A DNA stretch of 33,235 nucleotides from Candidatus Woesearchaeota archaeon (GTDB lineage: Archaea > Nanobdellota > Nanobdellia > Woesearchaeales > UBA10107), in NCBI GenBank assembly GCA_013331965.1, contig DUFL01000051.1, forward strand, positions 1 to 33,235, written 5' to 3'. How positions within the stretch are numbered: the first letter of the stretch is position 1; every line of letters starts with the position of its first letter. The notes under the pieces are model-generated. The model had not been told where the DNA came from. It saw nothing but the letters and a program-made list of their open reading frames with translations, and made no database searches. Positions 3,370 through 30,935 of the stretch are shown here, piece by piece. The translations under genes and the position numbers were made by a program.

Positions 3370-3867
3370 ATGTTTAAGTTCAATAAAGAGGACTCTAAGT
3401 TAAAAGAGATAGAAAACAGCGTAAAATCGGCCTTTAAAGCCGTCAAAGAAGAGATGGAAGACCATCTGACTTCTATAAATGAGAATACAGAAGAGCTCCA
3501 GGAACACTCTGCTCACATCGATGAACTGGAGTCTAAATTTGAGAAATTACAGGAGAGATTCGATGAGATCCATATGATGCTTTCAAGGATGACGAAGCAG
3601 GGAGATTTATCTCTTTCCGAGACAGAAAAAAATGTTTTTATGGTTCTTTATTCAATCGAGCAGACGCCATTGAGTTACACTGATATTTCGATGAGAACAG
3701 GACTGACTGAATTGGCAGTCAAAGCTCACATTTTCTCGATGATTAACAAAGGAATTCCCATCTTGGAACGGCAGATCGACGGACAGTCATTCTTTAGATT
3801 GGATAAAAAATTCAAAGAACTGCAGGCCAAAGAGAATGTTTTAAAGATTGATATGGATAATTTCTAA
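3370..3867 (+). CDS. coiled-coil + C-terminal winged-helix DNA-binding protein (putative transcription regulator)
   Basis: N-terminal heptad-rich E/K region. C-terminal TEKNVFMVLYSIEQTPLSYTDISMRTGLTELAVKAHIFSMINKGIPILER resembles a wHTH. GAGGGGG SD-like element lies 5 nt upstream. Confidence 0.65.
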   Translation: MFKFNKEDSKLKEIENSVKSAFKAVKEEMEDHLTSINENTEELQEHSAHIDELESKFEKLQERFDEIHMMLSRMTKQGDLSLSETEKNVFMVLYSIEQTPLSYTDISMRTGLTELAVKAHIFSMINKGIPILERQIDGQSFFRLDKKFKELQAKENVLKIDMDNF

Positions 3868-4136: not shown

Positions 4137-4637
4137 TTAATCAAAAACAATATTTTCCTGATTTTTTTGTTGCGAAGCAGCAATTTTCTCGTTTTTGATC
4201 AACTTTTGCAATTCCCTGACATATTTCATTGAAGTTTCAAGATAGTTCGTAATTCTTTGTACAGATTTCTCAAAAGCGCTCTCTAGAGTGCTTCCGTTAA
4301 GCTTGTAGCCGATTATAACCTTTCCGTCAGTTATGAACGAAGTTTTGCTAATCAGGTCAAGTTCAACCCAGCGTTTAAGATAGTCATACATTGTCTGTCT
4401 TGTTATTCCGGCATGAAGACCCATCTCTTCAACAGTCATGACAGCAGCTTCGGGGTGTTTTTCTCTCTGTGCAGCTTTCATTTTCTCATATATTTCTACA
4501 AGAACATTGTGCATCTTGTCTGTCGAGCCTTCTTTTCTTGGCATCAACCCCATCCTGTGCATTATTATTCTGCTTAGTTCGTCTGCAGTGGGGTTCATGT
4601 TTGGCTCATGGTTTGTTAATATTATTTTTGTTGTCAT
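4137..4637 (-). CDS. HTH-type DNA-binding protein (putative transcription regulator)
   Basis: Central MTVEEMGLHAGITRQTMYDYLKRWVELDLISKT helix-turn-helix-like segment. GAGGT SD upstream. A 6-bp-stem palindrome gccgaa-tttg-ttcggc (4651-4666) lies in the leader. Confidence 0.7.
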   Translation of the reverse strand: MTTKIILTNHEPNMNPTADELSRIIMHRMGLMPRKEGSTDKMHNVLVEIYEKMKAAQREKHPEAAVMTVEEMGLHAGITRQTMYDYLKRWVELDLISKTSFITDGKVIIGYKLNGSTLESAFEKSVQRITNYLETSMKYVRELQKLIKNEKIAASQQKNQENIVFD

Positions 4638-7345: not shown

Positions 7346-8296
7346 TCATGCAACAGCCACCTTTTCTGATTTCTTGGCTCTCGATAATGCCTGCTCCAAT
7401 GAGCTTTCTGCTTTTTCAATTAATCTTATTAAATAATTTACAGATCTTTCTTCACTTTCCAATGAGCCTCTTGCCGATTCAAGAATTGCACTTATTTTGT
7501 CTGCAAATTCCCTTTCGTGAGTTCTTGGAAGATTAATCTCAGCAACAGCATTTGTTATAGTATCTGCCGATTTATTCCCGTATTTAACCAGAATATAACT
7601 GAATATATACATATCGGTTATTACTTTTTTGAAGACCTTGCTGTACTCTTTGTTTAATTTTAAAATTTCACGAATATCTTCCGGCCTTCTTGCTTTTCTT
7701 TCCGCCTTAGTTAGTCTTTTTTCGACTCTGTATGTTGCATTTACCAAACTTCTTTCTTTGAACCATTCAAAATATGGGCGAAGTACTGCAATTAACCCGC
7801 CTAATTCATATGATTCGAGCTGCCTGTCTATCTGTCCGAATAACGGAGTGACTCCTCCTTTTGTTCCTCTGACAACTCCGTTCACATATTCATAGCACTG
7901 CTTCAAAGTTGCTCTTATGCTGTCTAAAAATTCTTTGTATATTCTTATCTGATCTGAGTCAAGCAATGCTCCGTGTTTTTGGAAGAAAACAATTGTTTCT
8001 AAAAGCTCTTCTTTTAATAAAATAAATTCTTCTGTCTTTACATCGTGCGTTTCCTGAAGTCCTTCGCGAAGGCCGGCTACAATTTCAGAAGCTCTTTCTC
8101 TGACTAGATTTATCTCGTGATTTTTTATTAATTTTAACAATAATCTGTAATTATGATGGATCGCATTTTTTTCATGAACCGCTTTAGAAGCCTCTTTCCT
8201 CGCAGTTCTTCTTTGTATAAATCTTAATGTTTCAGCCTTTCCGATAATCCCCTGTCCAGAATAGTCTATTGTCAGATTATTGGTTCCTTCGGCCAT
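7346..8296 (-). CDS. all-helical hypothetical protein, 316 aa
   Basis: Long uninterrupted ORF. GAGGT SD and gtttataaag TATA upstream. No motif I recognise. Confidence 0.7.
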   Translation of the reverse strand: MAEGTNNLTIDYSGQGIIGKAETLRFIQRRTARKEASKAVHEKNAIHHNYRLLLKLIKNHEINLVRERASEIVAGLREGLQETHDVKTEEFILLKEELLETIVFFQKHGALLDSDQIRIYKEFLDSIRATLKQCYEYVNGVVRGTKGGVTPLFGQIDRQLESYELGGLIAVLRPYFEWFKERSLVNATYRVEKRLTKAERKARRPEDIREILKLNKEYSKVFKKVITDMYIFSYILVKYGNKSADTITNAVAEINLPRTHEREFADKISAILESARGSLESEERSVNYLIRLIEKAESSLEQALSRAKKSEKVAVA

Positions 8297-8380
8297 GTCT
8301 AAACCTCTTTCTCATTCTTAGGCAAAGGCTCTTTATAAACATTTCGGGGGTTTAAAGGCTTATGGAGCTGTTTTAAGTTG

Positions 8381-8420
8381 TAGTTACTTAGTAGTGGTTA
8401 AAAATAGAAAGGTTTATATA
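8381..8420 (+). promoter_or_regulatory. shared promoter cassette copy 1 (imperfect palindrome + BRE/TATA)
   Basis: tagttacttagtagtggttaaaaatagaaaggtttatata. The ATG at 8443 lies about 25 nt downstream of the TATA. Confidence 0.7.
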
Positions 8421-8442
8421 TTACTGAGCTTTGAATGGCAGC

Positions 8443-9564
8443 ATGTCAGGATTATCTAAGTCAGCAATAGCATTGGCATCTTTGCTAGCTACGGCCGGAT
8501 GTGCAGGAAATAAAGTTAAACCAAATGATATTCAACCAGCAGTTCAATCTGCTCCAAAAATTAAGGTTCTTCCTTTGTCAGTCAGAACAGCAGCAGAACA
8601 TAAACATTTCGAAGATATTACAAAAAACTATTGTATTGTTTATACGGATTCAAATGGTGCACATAAAATAGAGTTTTCTTCAACAACAACCGCAGAAGGG
8701 AATCTGAGAATAGCAGAAAATTATTCAGACTTAACGCAGCTGGTTAGTGAATCATATCCGGGGCAATTAAATCCCCCAAAAGTTTTTGCAAGTAAACCTA
8801 GTGAATATTTTTTTACAGATGTAGATAACAAAAATATTTACAAGTATTCTGCATCAAAAGATCAAAAAGAAATAGGTTTAGACCTTATCGCATCAAATAT
8901 TGACCTGGGATGTTATGATTTTGTTGGGGATACTATTATTTTTATAACTAAGGATGGTAAATCCATTAAAAAATTAAATAGCGATGGTTCGCATGAAACC
9001 GAGCTTTTTGCCGGAGAGACAGTTACTTTTAACGATTTAGTAATTTCTCCAAGCCAAAAAAGAGTAATTTTTACAAAATCACCGGTCAGCAGAGGAGGAT
9101 CATTGTCGATTTTCAATAATGCAGCATATTATGTTATGGATTTAGAAGGAGACAACAATTCCAAGCCCATGAAACTTGGATTTGAAGGATTATTCGGGGA
9201 ATATGATCAATCATCCGGGCCGCAAAATGTTTCGTTCTTGATGAAAACAGACAACGGAAGATCTTCTTTAGAAAATAAGATATTATTCACATATAGATAC
9301 CCGACTGCAAAAGGAAATAATCTTTATTCTGTTGAACTCGGTGAATTCTTGAGAGATTGCGGTTGCATCCCTCTTAAAAAAGAAACATTAAAAAGGATTA
9401 CTTCGGATGATGCACCGATAACTTACGCAAAACAAGTAAAAGATAATAGCGATTATATTATCTATGTGCAGGATGGAAAACTTTTCTTGGCGAAAGATAA
9501 CGATAGATTTCTTTTGTTAGAACAAAGATTTAATGGTTCAGAACCTCTGCTCGTAAAAAAATAA
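8443..9564 (+). CDS. secreted lipoprotein-like beta-propeller (TolB/PD40-like) protein
   Basis: MSGLSKSAIALASLLATAGCAGN is a signal peptide with a lipobox-like AGC. Repeated DG-x-x-(I/L)-x-F type strands (KDGKSIKKLNSDGSHETELF, SPSQKRVIFT). Start moved from TTG 8431 to ATG 8443 (leaderless spacing from TATA). Confidence 0.7.
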   Translation: MSGLSKSAIALASLLATAGCAGNKVKPNDIQPAVQSAPKIKVLPLSVRTAAEHKHFEDITKNYCIVYTDSNGAHKIEFSSTTTAEGNLRIAENYSDLTQLVSESYPGQLNPPKVFASKPSEYFFTDVDNKNIYKYSASKDQKEIGLDLIASNIDLGCYDFVGDTIIFITKDGKSIKKLNSDGSHETELFAGETVTFNDLVISPSQKRVIFTKSPVSRGGSLSIFNNAAYYVMDLEGDNNSKPMKLGFEGLFGEYDQSSGPQNVSFLMKTDNGRSSLENKILFTYRYPTAKGNNLYSVELGEFLRDCGCIPLKKETLKRITSDDAPITYAKQVKDNSDYIIYVQDGKLFLAKDNDRFLLLEQRFNGSEPLLVKK

Positions 9565-10775: not shown

Positions 10776-11261
10776 TTAGTTTCTCCTTTCTAATCTTTTT
10801 AAAGCTATTTCCAATTCAGATTCTTTCTTTTTAATATCATCAAGGTAGATTTTGGCCTGTTCTAGATATTCTCTTCTTTTAATATCGTCTTTGGTGTTTT
10901 TAGCTTTATCTAATAAAATTTCAGCAGAAGAGCGTTCTCCTGAAATAATTACCGGATAATGTTCAGCCATATGAACCCACATTTTTGTTGTGACCCATTC
11001 TTTAGCACTAAAATAAACAGGATTATTTGATGGTCCAAATTTAATAACTTCAACGAACAAATTTTCAGCCTTTTTATAATTGTAGTCCGAAACCGCTAAA
11101 ACTCCTTTTTCATAGTTAATTTTAGGTAAATTTGAAAAAATATGACCTTCTGCAGGTCTTGAAGGATAATCAGTTTTAGTTAGTATTCTATCCAATAATC
11201 CTGCGTTTGCAGGAGCCGCTACAAACAACCATAATGCTAAATTCGGAAGTAGGTTTTTCAT
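10776..11261 (-). CDS. secreted TPR-like domain protein (paralog of the C-terminal domain of the 341-aa protein)
   Basis: MKNLLPNLALWLFVAAPANA signal peptide. Shares AEHYPxIxSxERSxAE, DIKRR and LEQAxxYxxDxKKKES blocks with 13443-14468. Start moved to the ATG at 11261, about 25 nt downstream of the TATA at 11281-11290. Confidence 0.75.
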   Translation of the reverse strand: MKNLLPNLALWLFVAAPANAGLLDRILTKTDYPSRPAEGHIFSNLPKINYEKGVLAVSDYNYKKAENLFVEVIKFGPSNNPVYFSAKEWVTTKMWVHMAEHYPVIISGERSSAEILLDKAKNTKDDIKRREYLEQAKIYLDDIKKKESELEIALKRLERRN

Positions 11262-11280
11262 GGGTCTACTCATATTCACT

Positions 11281-16427: not shown

Positions 16428-18103
16428 TATGCGGGTACCTCTTCAGGAATACCATACTCTTGTTTTAATATCTCGGCGAATCCTGCCAGCATAAACACTT
16501 TTCTTTTGGTTTTCATTGCGTTATCTATTGAAAGAATATCTATTTTTAATTTGGCTTGCAGCTCCTCCTCATACCTTGCTGCTTCAGCTAATTTTACAAT
16601 CAGTTTGTTGAAATTTGGTACTATTTTTGTTCTGATTAAGCTTGCTCGTTCCATTCCATCCGGAGTTTCGGATGCTCTAATCAATGCGGTTCTCAATTCA
16701 GTCAGTGCTGAATTTATTTCGATTGTTTCCCTGTTATAGTTCATTATTAAATCATTTGTCTTATCAGTTTCTTCATCTTCTTTTTTAAGCTGTTCAATTA
16801 GATTCGGCGACATTTCTTCAATTGAGATAAGGGTTTTTGTGAATGCAGTTATAATCTCTTTTCTTTTTTGTCCCAATTCTCTTATTCTTTTTCTCACTGC
16901 ATAATTAGCTGTTTTTATTCCTCTTTTTGCTGCTTTCGCAAATACTATTTTCCAGCCAGCATCATCTTTTAATTTAAACTCATCAAATTTTGCAGCAAAA
17001 AGCGGCTGATTCCAATTTTTCCCTAAATGGATTTCCCATTTTTTTCTTCCTTCTTCAGTATCTTTTATCAAATCTTCATATATTCCAAGAAGATATTTCA
17101 TTTCTTTTCCCTCCTGTGTCATTTCAAAATTGTCTCTGAATAGTTTAATTTGTTTTCTTCTTGCTTCTTTTTCATTCTCTATGGCTTTAAGCTTGTCATT
17201 CAATGTAGTTGTTTTTCTAATCGGCTGCAGCAAAATTTGATCATGTATGGGGATTGCAGATGCTATTCTCGCTAAAAATGGCTTTACTACCATTTCATTT
17301 TGCGGCTGCGATATTGCTGCTGCTTCTGCATTTTGTACTGCGAATCTTGCTTGCCCAGCTTGTGCTAAAATCTGTTTTGTTCTTTCTCTTTCTATTCTTA
17401 TTTGTGTGACTATCTTTCTTCTTTCCATCTTGTCTTGTCTGTCCATTTCCTCTTCTTTCTCTGCTTTTTCTTTTTTCTTTTTCCACTCTTCTTTTTTGTG
17501 TGCCACAATTGTCGGGTATATGAATATTACGGCGGCTATTAATCCATGCACTACAAATATGCTGGCAAAAAATGGATCTAAACCAGAGGTTCTCAATGTC
17601 TGCAGTATTGATTCGGGCAGTATGTTCGTTCTTGAAAAAAGGCTGTTAAAAGGCGCAGCGATAATACTTATTACAAAATATGTTCCAGTAAACAGCTCGA
17701 ATTTTTCTTTTTCCCCTGCACTAGTTTTATTTGTGATAGCATAATAAATATATACAATCCATGCAAGAAACCACATGCTTTTGAAAGGATTTGAAGTATT
17801 TAGCACAAAATTGGAGATTACGGGGATTGTAACTATGCCGACCACAATTCCGCTTATGTTAGCAATTGATCCTTTAAACCAATCTCCTCCGAATCTTCTT
17901 AATAATAATATAATAATTAAAACTGTAAGCACCCAAGTACCGAAAAACGCCAATAATTTTCCTTGTGAACTTACTTCGCTTAATGGAGCAATAATATTCT
18001 TGATACTTTCAACATTAGTTTCTATTGAATATGCCGAAATAATACTAACTAGGTTAAGAACTATGGAAATGAGCATTAAATACAACATTTTATTTTTTCT
18101 CAA
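16427..18103 (-). CDS. polytopic membrane protein with about 350-aa C-terminal coiled coil, 558 aa
   Basis: N-terminal signal/TM plus about 5 further TM helices, then a KKEEWKKKKEKAEKEEE coiled coil. Start is either TTG 18103 (TTGA overlap with the RHH gene) or ATG 18088. Confidence 0.8.
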   Translation of the reverse strand: MRKNKMLYLMLISIVLNLVSIISAYSIETNVESIKNIIAPLSEVSSQGKLLAFFGTWVLTVLIIILLLRRFGGDWFKGSIANISGIVVGIVTIPVISNFVLNTSNPFKSMWFLAWIVYIYYAITNKTSAGEKEKFELFTGTYFVISIIAAPFNSLFSRTNILPESILQTLRTSGLDPFFASIFVVHGLIAAVIFIYPTIVAHKKEEWKKKKEKAEKEEEMDRQDKMERRKIVTQIRIERERTKQILAQAGQARFAVQNAEAAAISQPQNEMVVKPFLARIASAIPIHDQILLQPIRKTTTLNDKLKAIENEKEARRKQIKLFRDNFEMTQEGKEMKYLLGIYEDLIKDTEEGRKKWEIHLGKNWNQPLFAAKFDEFKLKDDAGWKIVFAKAAKRGIKTANYAVRKRIRELGQKRKEIITAFTKTLISIEEMSPNLIEQLKKEDEETDKTNDLIMNYNRETIEINSALTELRTALIRASETPDGMERASLIRTKIVPNFNKLIVKLAEAARYEEELQAKLKIDILSIDNAMKTKRKVFMLAGFAEILKQEYGIPEEVPA

Positions 18104-18243
18104 TTCTTCACCTTCTTTTTTAGTTCTCTACTTAGCAAATCTTCTATCATTGACGAGAGGTTAGTGTTTTCATCAATTGCCAATTTCTTGGCATCTTTCC
18201 AGATATCTACGTCTAGTTTTATTGTCCTAGTTATCCTTGACAT
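18100..18243 (-). CDS. 47-aa ribbon-helix-helix (CopG/Arc-like) DNA-binding protein, first gene of the cluster
   Basis: Not in the ORF track. MSRITRTIKLDVDIWKDAKKLAIDENTNLSSMIEDLLSRELKKKVKN has the beta-strand/helix/helix RHH pattern. tttataaa on the minus strand lies about 25 nt upstream. Confidence 0.65.
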   Translation of the reverse strand: MSRITRTIKLDVDIWKDAKKLAIDENTNLSSMIEDLLSRELKKKVKN

Positions 18244-18351: not shown

Positions 18352-19086
18352 TTATCTAGCAACTGCCGCTTCGAGCCCACTCATTGCAGAATCGACACTG
18401 TCGATAGGATTTCTTAGATACAATGTGTTCCAGTAATATTTGTTTACGGCTTCTTTTGTAACTTCTATCCCTTCCTTAACTCTGTCCACAACATTAGAAA
18501 CACTGCTTGTTGCGGCTTCTTTTGCTCCGCTGATTATATTGGCTAATTTTCCGAATGTTTCTGGTGCAAGATTCTTGAAAGCCAAACCTCCGCCGATAGC
18601 GCATCCCAACATTTTTCCATATTTATTTGAATTTCTTCCTTTGAAAAAGTAATTAAATATTTTCTCAGGAGCCATAGCTATATTTTTTACAGTATCAAAC
18701 GGATGCATAACAACTTCAGTAGTTTTTCTGAAAACACTGCCAATAGTATCGACAGGATGTCTAATTAATTTATAGGCTAATCCAAAACTTCCCGTTACAA
18801 AATTGTAACCCATATTCATTGCTATATACGTCGTAGAACCAACAATGGTCGTATAGACTAATCCCATTATTGGCGATAAAAAAACAATAGGTAAAACAGA
18901 TCCAGCTGAATAAGATGCGGCACCGTATTTCAATGTATCGCCAACAAAGCCATCAACTTTATTCATAACATTTACAACATTTTCTTTCGTTTCTTGAAGC
19001 TTTTGCTCTAACGATTTAGAAGGTACACTTGTTCTCTGTTCAAGCCCTCCTGCGGGCATAGGAATAGTTGCTGCAGCTGCTGTCAT
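18352..19086 (-). CDS. membrane protein, unknown function, 244 aa
   Basis: Long ORF with central hydrophobic helices (VLPIVFLSPIMGLVYTTIVGSTTYIAM). gctttaaata TATA upstream. Confidence 0.7.
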   Translation of the reverse strand: MTAAAATIPMPAGGLEQRTSVPSKSLEQKLQETKENVVNVMNKVDGFVGDTLKYGAASYSAGSVLPIVFLSPIMGLVYTTIVGSTTYIAMNMGYNFVTGSFGLAYKLIRHPVDTIGSVFRKTTEVVMHPFDTVKNIAMAPEKIFNYFFKGRNSNKYGKMLGCAIGGGLAFKNLAPETFGKLANIISGAKEAATSSVSNVVDRVKEGIEVTKEAVNKYYWNTLYLRNPIDSVDSAMSGLEAAVAR

Positions 19087-19164
19087 TTTGTTACCACTTG
19101 CAAGTAAGAATACTATTATTTAAAGCTTTCGCTTATCATCCAAATCAATAAAATGCAAGAATCC

Positions 19165-19811: not shown

Positions 19812-19850
19812 TAGTTACTATTAAGTAGCTAAAATAGAAAGGTTTATATA
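19812..19850 (+). promoter_or_regulatory. shared promoter cassette copy 2
   Basis: tagttactattaagtagctaaaatagaaaggtttatata. The ATG at 19876 lies about 26 nt downstream of the TATA. Confidence 0.7.
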
Positions 19851-19875: not shown

Positions 19876-20781
19876 ATGGTGGAACTACTTAATTATTCAG
19901 ATCATCAATACTATCCCCGTAAATCGTTTAAAGGCTTAGAGAAATTAGTTATTTTTCCCGAAGGTGAACTAAAAAGCGATGGCATCCCAAATGGCTCAGT
20001 TTGGATGTTTAACTCCCCAGATCATACTTACGACCCACGAATTCTCGCAAATGACGTTGGGTGCGGTATGTCCGCATTTTTGATTTCTAATGAATTTAAT
20101 TATAAAACTGCCGCGGATAAGGTTGCAGATTTTATGAAAAATAAAAGAATTTTAGGCAATGGAAATCATTTTGTAGATATTTGCGGTCCTTTTGAACCTT
20201 TGACGGATCAATCATACCCAGGACACAGTGTTTTAGTTATTCACACAGATGGAAAATCTTTTGATAATGCCTCGCCAAAAACATTTGAAGAAGTAAAATT
20301 AAAAACACAAAAGGCGATAAATTTTAGACATAATTTGGGCAATGATCTTGCAAAATTAATTGGAGCTTATAAACTTGAAACACTTGGAGATTGGCCGCAC
20401 AACACCGTTGAAGTGGAAAATGGAAGTTATGTTTATCGTAAAGGGGTAATTAAAGTTACTCCGGAAAAAATTCATATGCTGCCTATGCACGTCGGGTCTA
20501 CAATTTTATTTTATACTATTCACAAAGACGATATTCCAGTTGCACATTCTATGCCCCATGCAAGCGGAAGAAGGGGTCCAACTGGAGACTTTAAGGTATC
20601 TGTTGAAAAGGCAAAAGAAATTAGAAATATGGTTTATGTTCCAGAATTAGTATCCGACTCTTCGCTGAGATCAGTTCATCCGGATTGCTTTAATGAATCC
20701 ACTCCAATATACAGAAAATTTGGAAAGCAAATGGTAGGGTTAGGAGAAACTCGAATTAAAGCATTTATTGGTAAAATTTAA
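19876..20781 (+). CDS. rtcB: miniature RtcB-like RNA ligase homolog (301 aa)
   Basis: Ordered RtcB signature blocks: NDVGCGM (Asp/Cys metal ligands), GNGNHFVDI, HTDGKS (in place of HSGSRG), PHNTVE, YRKGV, MPHASGRRG (in place of HGAGR, the guanylylated His). About 180 aa shorter than canonical archaeal RtcB. Confidence 0.7.
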   Translation: MVELLNYSDHQYYPRKSFKGLEKLVIFPEGELKSDGIPNGSVWMFNSPDHTYDPRILANDVGCGMSAFLISNEFNYKTAADKVADFMKNKRILGNGNHFVDICGPFEPLTDQSYPGHSVLVIHTDGKSFDNASPKTFEEVKLKTQKAINFRHNLGNDLAKLIGAYKLETLGDWPHNTVEVENGSYVYRKGVIKVTPEKIHMLPMHVGSTILFYTIHKDDIPVAHSMPHASGRRGPTGDFKVSVEKAKEIRNMVYVPELVSDSSLRSVHPDCFNESTPIYRKFGKQMVGLGETRIKAFIGKI

Positions 20782-30437: not shown

Positions 30438-30478
30438 TAGTCACTAAATAGTGACTAAAAATACGAAAGATTTATATA
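30438..30478 (+). promoter_or_regulatory. shared promoter cassette copy 3 (perfect 9-2-9 palindrome + BRE/TATA)
   Basis: tagtcacta-aa-tagtgacta, then aaaatacgaaagatttatata. The ATG at 30492 lies 14 nt after the end of the TATA, shorter than the ~23-26 nt spacing in cassette copies 1 and 2. Confidence 0.7.
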
Positions 30479-30491
30479 AGAGTGATACTTT

Positions 30492-30935
30492 ATGTTTAGA
30501 ATGAAAGCCCCACAAGAACCTGTATTTTATTTTGACCCGAGAGCGGTAAGACAGATACAGGAACAGGCAGTGAAAGAGTACAGGAAATCATTTCTTGGAA
30601 AAGCAGTAAAATACGTTGCAATGGCAGGAATTGCTGGTGTTATTGTAACCGGCGCCGGAACAATGGCAATAAATGCTGCAAGAAAAGCTCATGCTGGTTT
30701 AGAAAAAAAACTTTCTACTTTTGAAAAACTTCCGGACGGAAGAATAAAATCCCATGGAAAAATATACTTCACCAAAGAGCATGTTTTAACAGGCAGCGAA
30801 GATATAATGAAAGTCGCAGCCGGATTGAATGGAAAAAAATGGGATGAAAACACCATGGCAATGATATTCGCTTTGAATGGCGGAGACAGAATGTACAAGC
30901 CGGGCGATAAAGTAACGCTGTTATATCAGAAATAA
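30492..30935 (+). CDS. membrane-anchored protein with weak LysM-like C-terminal domain
   Basis: TM YVAMAGIAGVIVTGAGTMAI. C-terminal HVLTGSEDIMKVAAGLNG...MIFALNGGDRMYKPGDKVTLLY loosely fits the LysM pattern (x-V-x-x-G-D/E...IA...N...L-x-x-G-x-x-L). Confidence 0.6.
   Translation: MFRMKAPQEPVFYFDPRAVRQIQEQAVKEYRKSFLGKAVKYVAMAGIAGVIVTGAGTMAINAARKAHAGLEKKLSTFEKLPDGRIKSHGKIYFTKEHVLTGSEDIMKVAAGLNGKKWDENTMAMIFALNGGDRMYKPGDKVTLLYQK

Follow-up and report, generated by a model that had tools for sequence, protein, structure and literature searches.

We analyzed a 33,235-nt stretch of DNA from a Candidatus Woesearchaeota archaeon (DUFL01000051.1, here contig C43 of an assembly of 60 contigs, 700 kb in total and 74% complete), referred to below as the window. 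Four transcription units in the window are preceded by a 20-bp quasi-palindromic box with the consensus TAGTYACT-N4-AGTRRYWA, which lies just upstream of a strong core promoter made of the TFB recognition element (BRE) and a TATA box. The same box, phased to the core promoter and found in either orientation, recurs throughout the order and in other orders of the class, in front of genes that are mostly unrelated to one another. Comparison of sequences suggests that the box is probably read by a dimeric winged-helix factor, most likely a pair of TrmB-family proteins similar to TrmBL2 (paralogues A and B), both of which are encoded outside the window.

The box and the core promoter in the window

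When the four promoters were aligned on the TATA, each contained the 20-bp box, an A-rich spacer of 5-7 nt, the BRE GAAAGr, the TATA box TTTATATA, and an ATG about 22 nt further on, which implies leaderless mRNAs. The box thus occupies roughly positions -45 to -65, and its 3' end is separated from the BRE by 5-7 nt. The downstream part has the layout of a generic archaeal promoter, with a purine-rich BRE directly 5' of a TTTAWAWA box and a start about 22-27 nt on. The box copies and their core promoters are as follows.

8381-8400, plus strand: box copy 1, TAGTTACTTAGTAGTGGTTA, 5' of a 373-aa lipoprotein / beta-propeller gene
8407-8420, plus strand: generic BRE/TATA of copy 1, GAAAGGTTTATATA; ATG at 8443, 22 nt past the TATA, so that the mRNA is predicted to be leaderless
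19812-19831, plus strand: box copy 2, TAGTTACTATTAAGTAGCTA, 5' of a 301-aa RtcB-like gene
19837-19850, plus strand: generic BRE/TATA of copy 2; ATG at 19876
30438-30457, plus strand: box copy 3, TAGTCACTAAATAGTGACTA, 5' of a LysM-like membrane protein gene (144 or 147 aa) and a 127-aa gene
30465-30478, plus strand: generic BRE/TATA of copy 3; ATG at 30492 or 30501
11322-11303, minus strand: box copy 4, AAGTCACTTATGAGTAGTAA, 5' of a secreted 161-aa TPR-like gene followed by 184-aa and 214-aa genes, a unit that spans 11261 down to 9579
11296-11283, minus strand: generic BRE/TATA of copy 4; ATG at 11273 or, more likely, at 11261, which would give a leaderless mRNA and the signal peptide MKNLLPNLALWLFVAAPANA
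19091-19110, minus strand: fifth box-like site, TTCTTACTTGCAAGTGGTAA, matching 13 of 15 consensus positions, at a 244-aa membrane-protein gene with its ATG at 19086

The four upstream copies had been described in a first-pass annotation of the window as a promoter cassette of about 45 bp. All four are present, and the third is, as described, a perfect 9-2-9 palindrome (TAGTCACTA-AA-TAGTGACTA). The fifth site was missed. The proposed extent of the cassette has to be narrowed: its 3' 14 nt (GAAAGrTTTATATA) are the generic strong BRE/TATA of this genome, and the 20-bp box is the specific part. The sequence AAAGrTTTATATA occurs at 20 sites in the genome, 17 of them with a preceding G, and the box is absent from 15 of the 20. 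Nor does the box abut the BRE, as had been proposed, since the A-rich spacer lies between them.

The box is more frequent in the window than expected by chance. Allowing two mismatches or fewer, the consensus TAGTYACTNNNNAGTRRYNA gave eight strand-matches at five loci, compared with a mean of 0.67 (maximum 4) in 100 dinucleotide shuffles of the window. At the canonical upstream position, none of the other BRE/TATA-like sites in the window reached 11 of 15 box matches, consistent with the earlier statement that other promoters in the window lack the box.

We then scanned the genome with a weight matrix, without requiring a promoter. The five best matches (22.8-31.3 bits) were the four window copies and one site outside the window, C36:14031-14050, in reverse orientation; all five adjoin a perfect BRE/TATA, and the next match scored 15.7. 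The scores of the five are partly circular because these sites are among the 10 from which the matrix was built. The scan of this genome found no box outside promoters. Three weaker candidates at the canonical position precede a 431-aa gene and a gene for a 567-aa secreted protein (C18:6630, minus strand), two GGDEF-like genes (C27:11237, plus strand), and a DEAD-box helicase gene (C36:20913, minus strand). In all, about 5-9 promoters of the whole genome carry the box, and this genome-wide scan, which had been suggested as a check, sets the box apart from the generic promoter. The operon headed by the C36:14031-14050 box (C36:12095-13983) encodes orphan proteins of 225, 106 and 118 aa, and then a stand-alone response-regulator receiver of 127 aa.

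The fifth site differs from the others in its position. It begins 6 nt past the TATA (BRE/TATA at 19130-19117) and ends 4 nt ahead of the ATG at 19086, in the layout GAAAGCTTTAAATA-atagta-TTCTTACTTGCAAGTGGTAA-caaa-ATG from 19130 down to 19084 on the minus strand. It therefore covers the predicted transcription start of the 244-aa gene, which precedes the ten-gene cluster of the window. Judged by its placement past the TATA, this would be a repressor-type position. The layout is kept at the orthologous gene in a related genome, G002 (AAAGCTTTATATA-taagta-AGACTACTTGATAGTGGTAAC-act-ATG), where the encoded protein is 31% identical. Among 74 complete genomes of the order, the core YACT-N4-AGTR was found 1-14 nt past the TATA in 24 cases, with no matches in the controls.

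Conservation, geometry and target genes across the class

The box is kept at orthologous promoters, as the first-pass annotation had anticipated for a genuine regulatory site. A strict pattern of box plus TATA found sites in four of five genomes of the same genus, with zero matches in controls read backward. Further footprinting was done by weight-matrix scan of 20-kb pieces from related genomes. The box was found at the promoters of the beta-propeller orthologues in G001 (C78:8176, minus strand) and G002 (C44:2586, plus strand). At the TPR-like orthologue of G001 (164 aa) it lies exactly between two divergent BRE/TATA promoters, and at C44:4998 in G002 a reversed box stands beside a minus-strand promoter. 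At the LysM-like orthologue in G004, a 7-2-7 palindrome is kept with a changed center and the same leader. The box-bearing orthologues are only 26-38% identical and their flanks have diverged, so that the box has been conserved selectively.

The RtcB-like gene (19876-20781) had been counted among the co-regulated genes, but its place as a conserved member of the set is not supported. No orthologue was found in the six other genomes of the family, and the match to the Pfam RtcB profile is very weak (E = 0.005). The gene looks like a recent acquisition set behind a box promoter.

The box is found well beyond these relatives. A first search of the order for box plus BRE gave hits in 66 of 251 genomes (58 of 191 genera), compared with about 8 control hits. 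We then made an unbiased search of 401 genomes of the order in which only TAGTYACT and the BRE/TATA were fixed, with a gap of 17-24 nt between them, and used backward-read sequences as controls. There were 94 sites and none in the controls, and 82 of the 94 were at a distance of 25-27 nt. The right half of the box emerged from these 82 sites although it had not been imposed: A13 was present in 69, G14 in 73, T15 in 81, R16 in 82, R17 in 79, Y18 in 82, and A20 in 76. The reverse orientation, with AGTRACTA nearest the promoter, was equally frequent (approximately 91 sites, 2 in controls), and several boxes lie midway between divergent promoters. Searching for the box alone gave 99 hits in 78 genomes of the order (2 in controls) and 63 hits in 253 genomes from other orders of the class (6 in controls). 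The flanks, the N4 center and the spacer are unconserved among the order-level sites, and the specific positions of the box are invariant. A class-wide site that is phased to the promoter and independent of orientation is what a dimeric DNA-binding protein would give.

Some sites depart from the simple pattern. A minor class has an N7 spacer. In addition, the half that was not forced by the search is mostly TWACYACT rather than TAGTYACT, so that a direct repeat of GTrGTwAC, with a period of 14 bp, is an alternative reading of the site. The order-level searches demanded either a consensus BRE/TATA or a perfect half-site; weaker sites were under-counted as a result, and the apparent strength of the box-linked promoters at the level of the order is partly due to this selection.

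We took as the target set the first open reading frame behind each of 135 box promoters. The ATG was 21-25 nt past the TATA in 51 of 98 box promoters, and copy 1 in the window fits this order-wide mode. In an all-against-all BLASTP comparison, 120 of the 135 genes were singletons, and a Pfam tally of 121 of them found no family in more than two. About a quarter of the first genes encode hydrophobic segments resembling signal peptides or transmembrane helices. Single Pfam hits include GT2, ADP-ribosylglycohydrolase, Macro, GGDEF, nucleotide cyclase, DnaJ, TFIIB and TFE-alpha. The sole recurrent group in the BLASTP set consists of five membrane proteins from five genera (L110, L130, L141, L144, L192) that resemble S26 signal peptidases, as judged from the motifs SM-x-P, GD/GDI, IHRV, and GDN/GDNN; this family may be a regulated second signal peptidase.

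The targets in the window comprise a lipoprotein, a secreted TPR-like protein and its two neighbors, the RtcB-like protein, and a small membrane protein, and none of these has a significant Pfam match. There is no conserved core regulon, because the genes driven by the box are nearly all unrelated across genera. The box drives a fast-changing set of unrelated genes and not the dedicated envelope regulon, tied to the ten-gene cluster, that had been proposed from the window. The element is order-wide and extends further, and within the cluster only the distal three-gene sub-operon carries it.

A sequence related to the box was seen downstream of some core promoters. GAGTG(A/T)TAC, which resembles a box half-site, lies directly past the TATA in copy 3 (30479-30491), in its orthologue in G004 (L018, G004:C1 near 31355) and in one further promoter of that genome, and also in the beta-propeller promoters of G001 and G002 (L013, L016). 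A third half-site of this kind is not a general feature: no downstream position was conserved across the 94 order-level sites, and CTAGT was found past the TATA in only nine of them.

In a distant relative (G398), three near-identical box promoters (CATCACCACTTTACAGTGACTACAAAACGAAAGG...) lie within approximately 3 kb, at 7424-7477, 9174-9227 and 10512-10565 of contig C8. This arrangement suggests tandem duplication of a unit comprising promoter plus gene.

The TrmBL2-like pair as candidate reader

A dimeric factor of the helix-turn-helix (HTH) or ribbon-helix-helix (RHH) type had been predicted to act at the box. The quasi-palindrome, the occurrence in both orientations and the fixed distance to BRE/TATA fit a dimeric HTH protein. 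The three candidates named from within the window do not fit. The RHH protein (18100-18243) is present in 5 of 31 relatives. The 166-aa HTH-like protein (4137-4637, minus strand) is present in 14 of 31, and is missing from two box-bearing genomes, one complete (G022) and one 99% complete (G026). The 165-aa protein (3370-3867) has no HTH in Pfam.

TrmB-family proteins are distributed much more widely, with matches in 31 of 31 relatives and 4-34 per genome of the order. Among them, the A/B type is the best candidate. The class has an A/B orthologue in 325 of the 331 genomes, with identities of 58-76% and usually two copies. In this genome, paralogue A (C48:24139) is truncated where the contig ends and, over 150 aa, is 100% identical to its counterpart in G001; paralogue B (C58:39754, 267 aa) is 97% identical to that of G001. 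The N-terminal TrmB winged-helix domain (PF01978) matches both (E = 7e-20 and 2e-20), and the closest solved relatives are the P. furiosus TrmBL2 structures (5BPD etc.; E = 3e-19 over the N-terminal 107 residues). The HTH WTALLSRGVSTAGELSDIANVPRSRSYDVLESLEKKGF is near-invariant across families of the order, as is the recognition helix NVPRSRxYDVLESL, which has Y50 and D51 as in TrmB and TrmBL2. These two residues are the DNA contacts listed for both proteins (PMC4158304, Table 1). At 267-270 aa, A and B are of TrmBL2-like size and lack the C-terminal sugar-binding part of TrmB; PF11495 does not match paralogue A and matches paralogue B only in part (profile positions 6-113 of 233, E = 3e-6).

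The promoters of the two paralogues are themselves related to the box. At 20 loci in about 18 genera, the paralogue A promoter has the box in a systematically weakened form, TTGYTAYT-N4-ArTAGYWA, with the canonical spacing to BRE/TATA. Fifteen of these 20 loci have at least 11 of 15 consensus matches, compared with 4.8% of 251 control BRE/TATA-like sites (Mann-Whitney p = 6e-7). Paralogue A was the only recurrent box-bearing gene found across genera. The paralogue B promoter is near-identical in five species (TAGTCTCTC-n-AATAGATAAAAAAACATAACCTTTTAATAGTAGTAGTA), with a degenerate box upstream. In five species the run AGTAGTAGTA lies directly past its weak TATA, and in two other genera AGTAGTA or AGTAGTG is found past the TATA (paralogue B promoters L064-L068, L058, L090). 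A weakened box in front of A and repeats past the TATA of B are the usual signature of autoregulation, which makes the TrmBL2-like pair the best candidate reader without amounting to proof.

The box resembles the operators of known TrmB-family proteins. These include TACT-N3-AGTA for TrmB of P. furiosus and T. litoralis, TATCAC-N5-GTGATA (the Thermococcales glycolytic motif, TGM) for TrmBL1/Tgr, and TACT-N7-8-GAGTA for VNG1451C of H. salinarum (PMC4158304). Like the euryarchaeal operators, the box is built as an inverted repeat, and the half-site cores agree: with T for y, yACT...AGTr becomes TACT/AGTA, and with C for y it becomes TCAC/GTGA. The core yACT-N4-AGTr is invariant or near-invariant in the 82 phased sites, in which the right half had been left free. 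As in TrmB systems, some sites lie upstream of BRE/TATA and others fall between TATA and start, and the genome encodes a Y50/D51 protein of the family that appears to be autoregulated. Unlike those operators, the box has a spacer one base longer (N4, not N3; in the alternative reading, TCAC-N6-GTGA, not N5), and because this falls outside N3, N5 and N7-8, the box is a new variant and none of the described TrmB motifs. Its outer flanks are asymmetric (TAGT on one side, GTWA on the other), its upstream sites are locked 5-7 bp from the BRE, its targets are unconserved and mostly orphan genes instead of genes of sugar metabolism, and its candidate reader lacks a full sugar-binding domain. On its sequence, we would accordingly class the box as an operator of the TrmB type whose spacer and geometry are new and whose targets form an unusual, unconserved set.

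The candidate reader itself is closest to TrmBL2 (TK0471 / PF0496; PDB 5BPD and 5BOX). It has a similar size (267-270 aa, compared with 264 aa), the TrmB C-terminal domain is only partly kept, and no other member of the family is as conserved in its lineage. TrmBL2 is reported to bind coding and intergenic DNA with little specificity, and its chromatin immunoprecipitation (ChIP) peaks give only AT-rich motifs (PMC11840125). Here, in contrast, a sharply defined 20-bp site with fixed promoter phasing would be implied, and these archaea usually carry two paralogues.

Mode of action and alternative explanations

We propose that the cassette would act as an ordinary strong archaeal promoter preceded by a 20-bp operator to which the TrmBL2-like pair binds. 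The pair would control the four units in the window, the unit at C36:14031 and the weaker sites elsewhere in the genome, as well as the 244-aa gene at 19086 through the site past the TATA; it probably also controls its own gene through the weakened box. In the TrmB-family regulators that have been characterized (TrmBL1, Tgr, VNG1451C), a site located upstream of BRE/TATA leads to activation and one that covers the start leads to repression (PMC4158304). The tight phasing of 25-27 nt argues for stereospecific contact with TFB or TBP. Based on this precedent and on the phasing, we lean towards activation, or at least a stereospecific TBP/TFB contact, at the four upstream sites, and towards repression at 19091-19110.

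Several observations weigh against this proposal. The link to the reader is circumstantial, and another universal factor could regulate the TrmBL2-like gene and the box promoters alike. The two half-sites differ systematically (TAGTYACT and TWACYACT), unlike what is expected for a plain homodimer. The presence or absence of the factor discriminates weakly because it is near-universal, and families f155 and f145, which have a single divergent copy, still have boxes. The one hint of a correlation comes from the two families with the most divergent single copy, in which the box is missing (f153, 23 genomes, 1 hit and 1 control hit; f157, 12 genomes, 0 hits). The box promoters already have a consensus BRE/TATA and should need no activator. 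Finally, TrmBL2 of the Thermococcales has been described as a general repressor and as a chromatin protein largely without specificity (PMC3031468, PMC4158304), which speaks against activation as well as a sharp operator code. Repression or nucleation by way of the box is therefore a serious rival.

It is also conceivable, although we consider it unlikely, that the box is a genuine conserved site read by a different universal factor, either another TrmB paralogue or a protein of another family, and that the TrmBL2-like gene is merely one of its targets. All of the evidence on the site itself applies equally to this explanation. The 4-34 TrmB-family matches per genome of the order offer alternative candidates, and the weakened box in front of paralogue A marks it as a target but not necessarily as the reader. 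However, paralogue A stands alone as a box-bearing gene that recurs across genera, and the A/B recognition helix is as invariant as the box. Moreover, the other TrmB paralogue of this genome, at C5:11776, has a distinct palindrome of its own (TTGTGG-N12-CCACAA), and the RHH and HTH candidates from the window are too patchy in distribution.

A further explanation keeps the TrmBL2-like protein as the reader and changes the role of the site. The box would be a high-affinity nucleation or architectural site for an abundant chromatin protein, and would serve H-NS-like silencing or act as a roadblock on the chromosome without being a signal-responsive operator. Silencing would then hit the strong promoters of newly acquired or accessory genes. 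We regard this as improbable. It would account for targets that are overwhelmingly lineage-specific and unrelated, and for promoters that are intrinsically very strong. In Thermococcus, TrmBL2 serves as a chromatin protein and represses genes globally (PMC3031468). TrmBL2 also brings SMC to a halt at tens of sites (PMC11840125) and reaches high abundance in the proteomes of Nanoarchaeota (PMC4935971). On the other hand, strict phasing to BRE/TATA in both orientations points to a stereospecific role at the promoter and not to spreading or a purely architectural function. There is no box off a promoter in the scan of this genome, and orthologous genes retain the box over long divergence.

It is very unlikely that the copies arose by duplication of a single mobile or recombining promoter cassette, alike by descent and read by no dedicated factor. 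Such a cassette might be expected in front of unrelated, recently acquired genes, the RtcB-like gene for example, and the three identical promoters within 3 kb in G398 have the appearance of copies. But the similarity ends at the box and the generic BRE/TATA, with unrelated flanks, and the N4 center and spacer vary freely while specific positions are invariant. The box also occurs in both orientations and past the TATA, and orthologous loci in different species have kept it. Neither terminal repeats nor target-site duplications are present, and the copies do not show the similarity over a whole unit that is seen in miniature inverted-repeat transposable elements. The weakest explanation, that the copies are only a generic strong promoter consensus or a chance resemblance, can be set aside almost entirely: although their 3' 14 nt are indeed generic BRE/TATA found at 20 genome sites, 15 of those 20 promoters lack the box, the shuffled window gave 0.67 matches where 8 were observed, and the backward-read controls gave 0-2 matches against 91-99, results that refute it.

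The arrangement that we favor, with the TrmBL2-like pair on an operator next to the core promoter, also resembles archaeal upstream activating sites such as those of Ptr2 (M. jannaschii) and TFB-RF1 (P. furiosus), as they are cited in PMC4158304. Like them, the box is palindromic, lies immediately upstream of BRE/TATA, and appears to be placed so as to contact TBP or TFB. As presented in that source, those activators offset a weak TATA or BRE, unlike the box, whose core promoter is already consensus; the candidate reader also comes from a different protein family than Ptr2 (Lrp) or TFB-RF1.

More broadly, TrmBL2-like proteins of the DPANN class Nanoarchaeia, which the literature treats as non-specific chromatin proteins, may read a fixed, class-wide 20-bp operator as a plug-in switch, giving master control over fast-evolving genes that probably function in host interaction. 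We offer this only tentatively, and think it doubtful as a whole. Lineage-specific or newly acquired genes (surface, secreted, signaling and repair-type) would repeatedly have been placed behind a fusion of operator and promoter. If the TrmBL2-like pair does read the box, what has been regarded as a generic chromatin component becomes a sequence-specific regulator, and the box would mark one co-controlled gene set with fast turnover in each genome of the class. The box-marked set would be a sensible place to look for host-interaction functions.

To our knowledge, gene regulation in DPANN archaea is almost uncharted because these organisms are uncultivated. Full-text searches found no published account of a motif like this one in DPANN or Woesearchaeota, nor of regulation of the TrmB type there. 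The box provides a cis-element with clean statistics, fixed promoter geometry, class-wide conservation and a concrete candidate reader.

Two other potential regulators were noted in this genome. The 166-aa protein of the window (4137-4637, minus strand) has a weak match to a Crp-type HTH and is 79-92% identical within the genus and 45-64% identical in other families. The third TrmB paralogue (paralogue C, 234 aa, C5:11776) came to attention through a weight-matrix match 5' of its gene at C5:11709, which we rejected as a box because it overlaps the different palindrome TTGTGG-N12-CCACAA. That palindrome lies between the promoter elements (C5:11709-11760), and orthologues of paralogue C (L070, L071, L074) have GTGGT...ACCAC at the same place. 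Paralogue C is probably a separate, autoregulated TrmB system.

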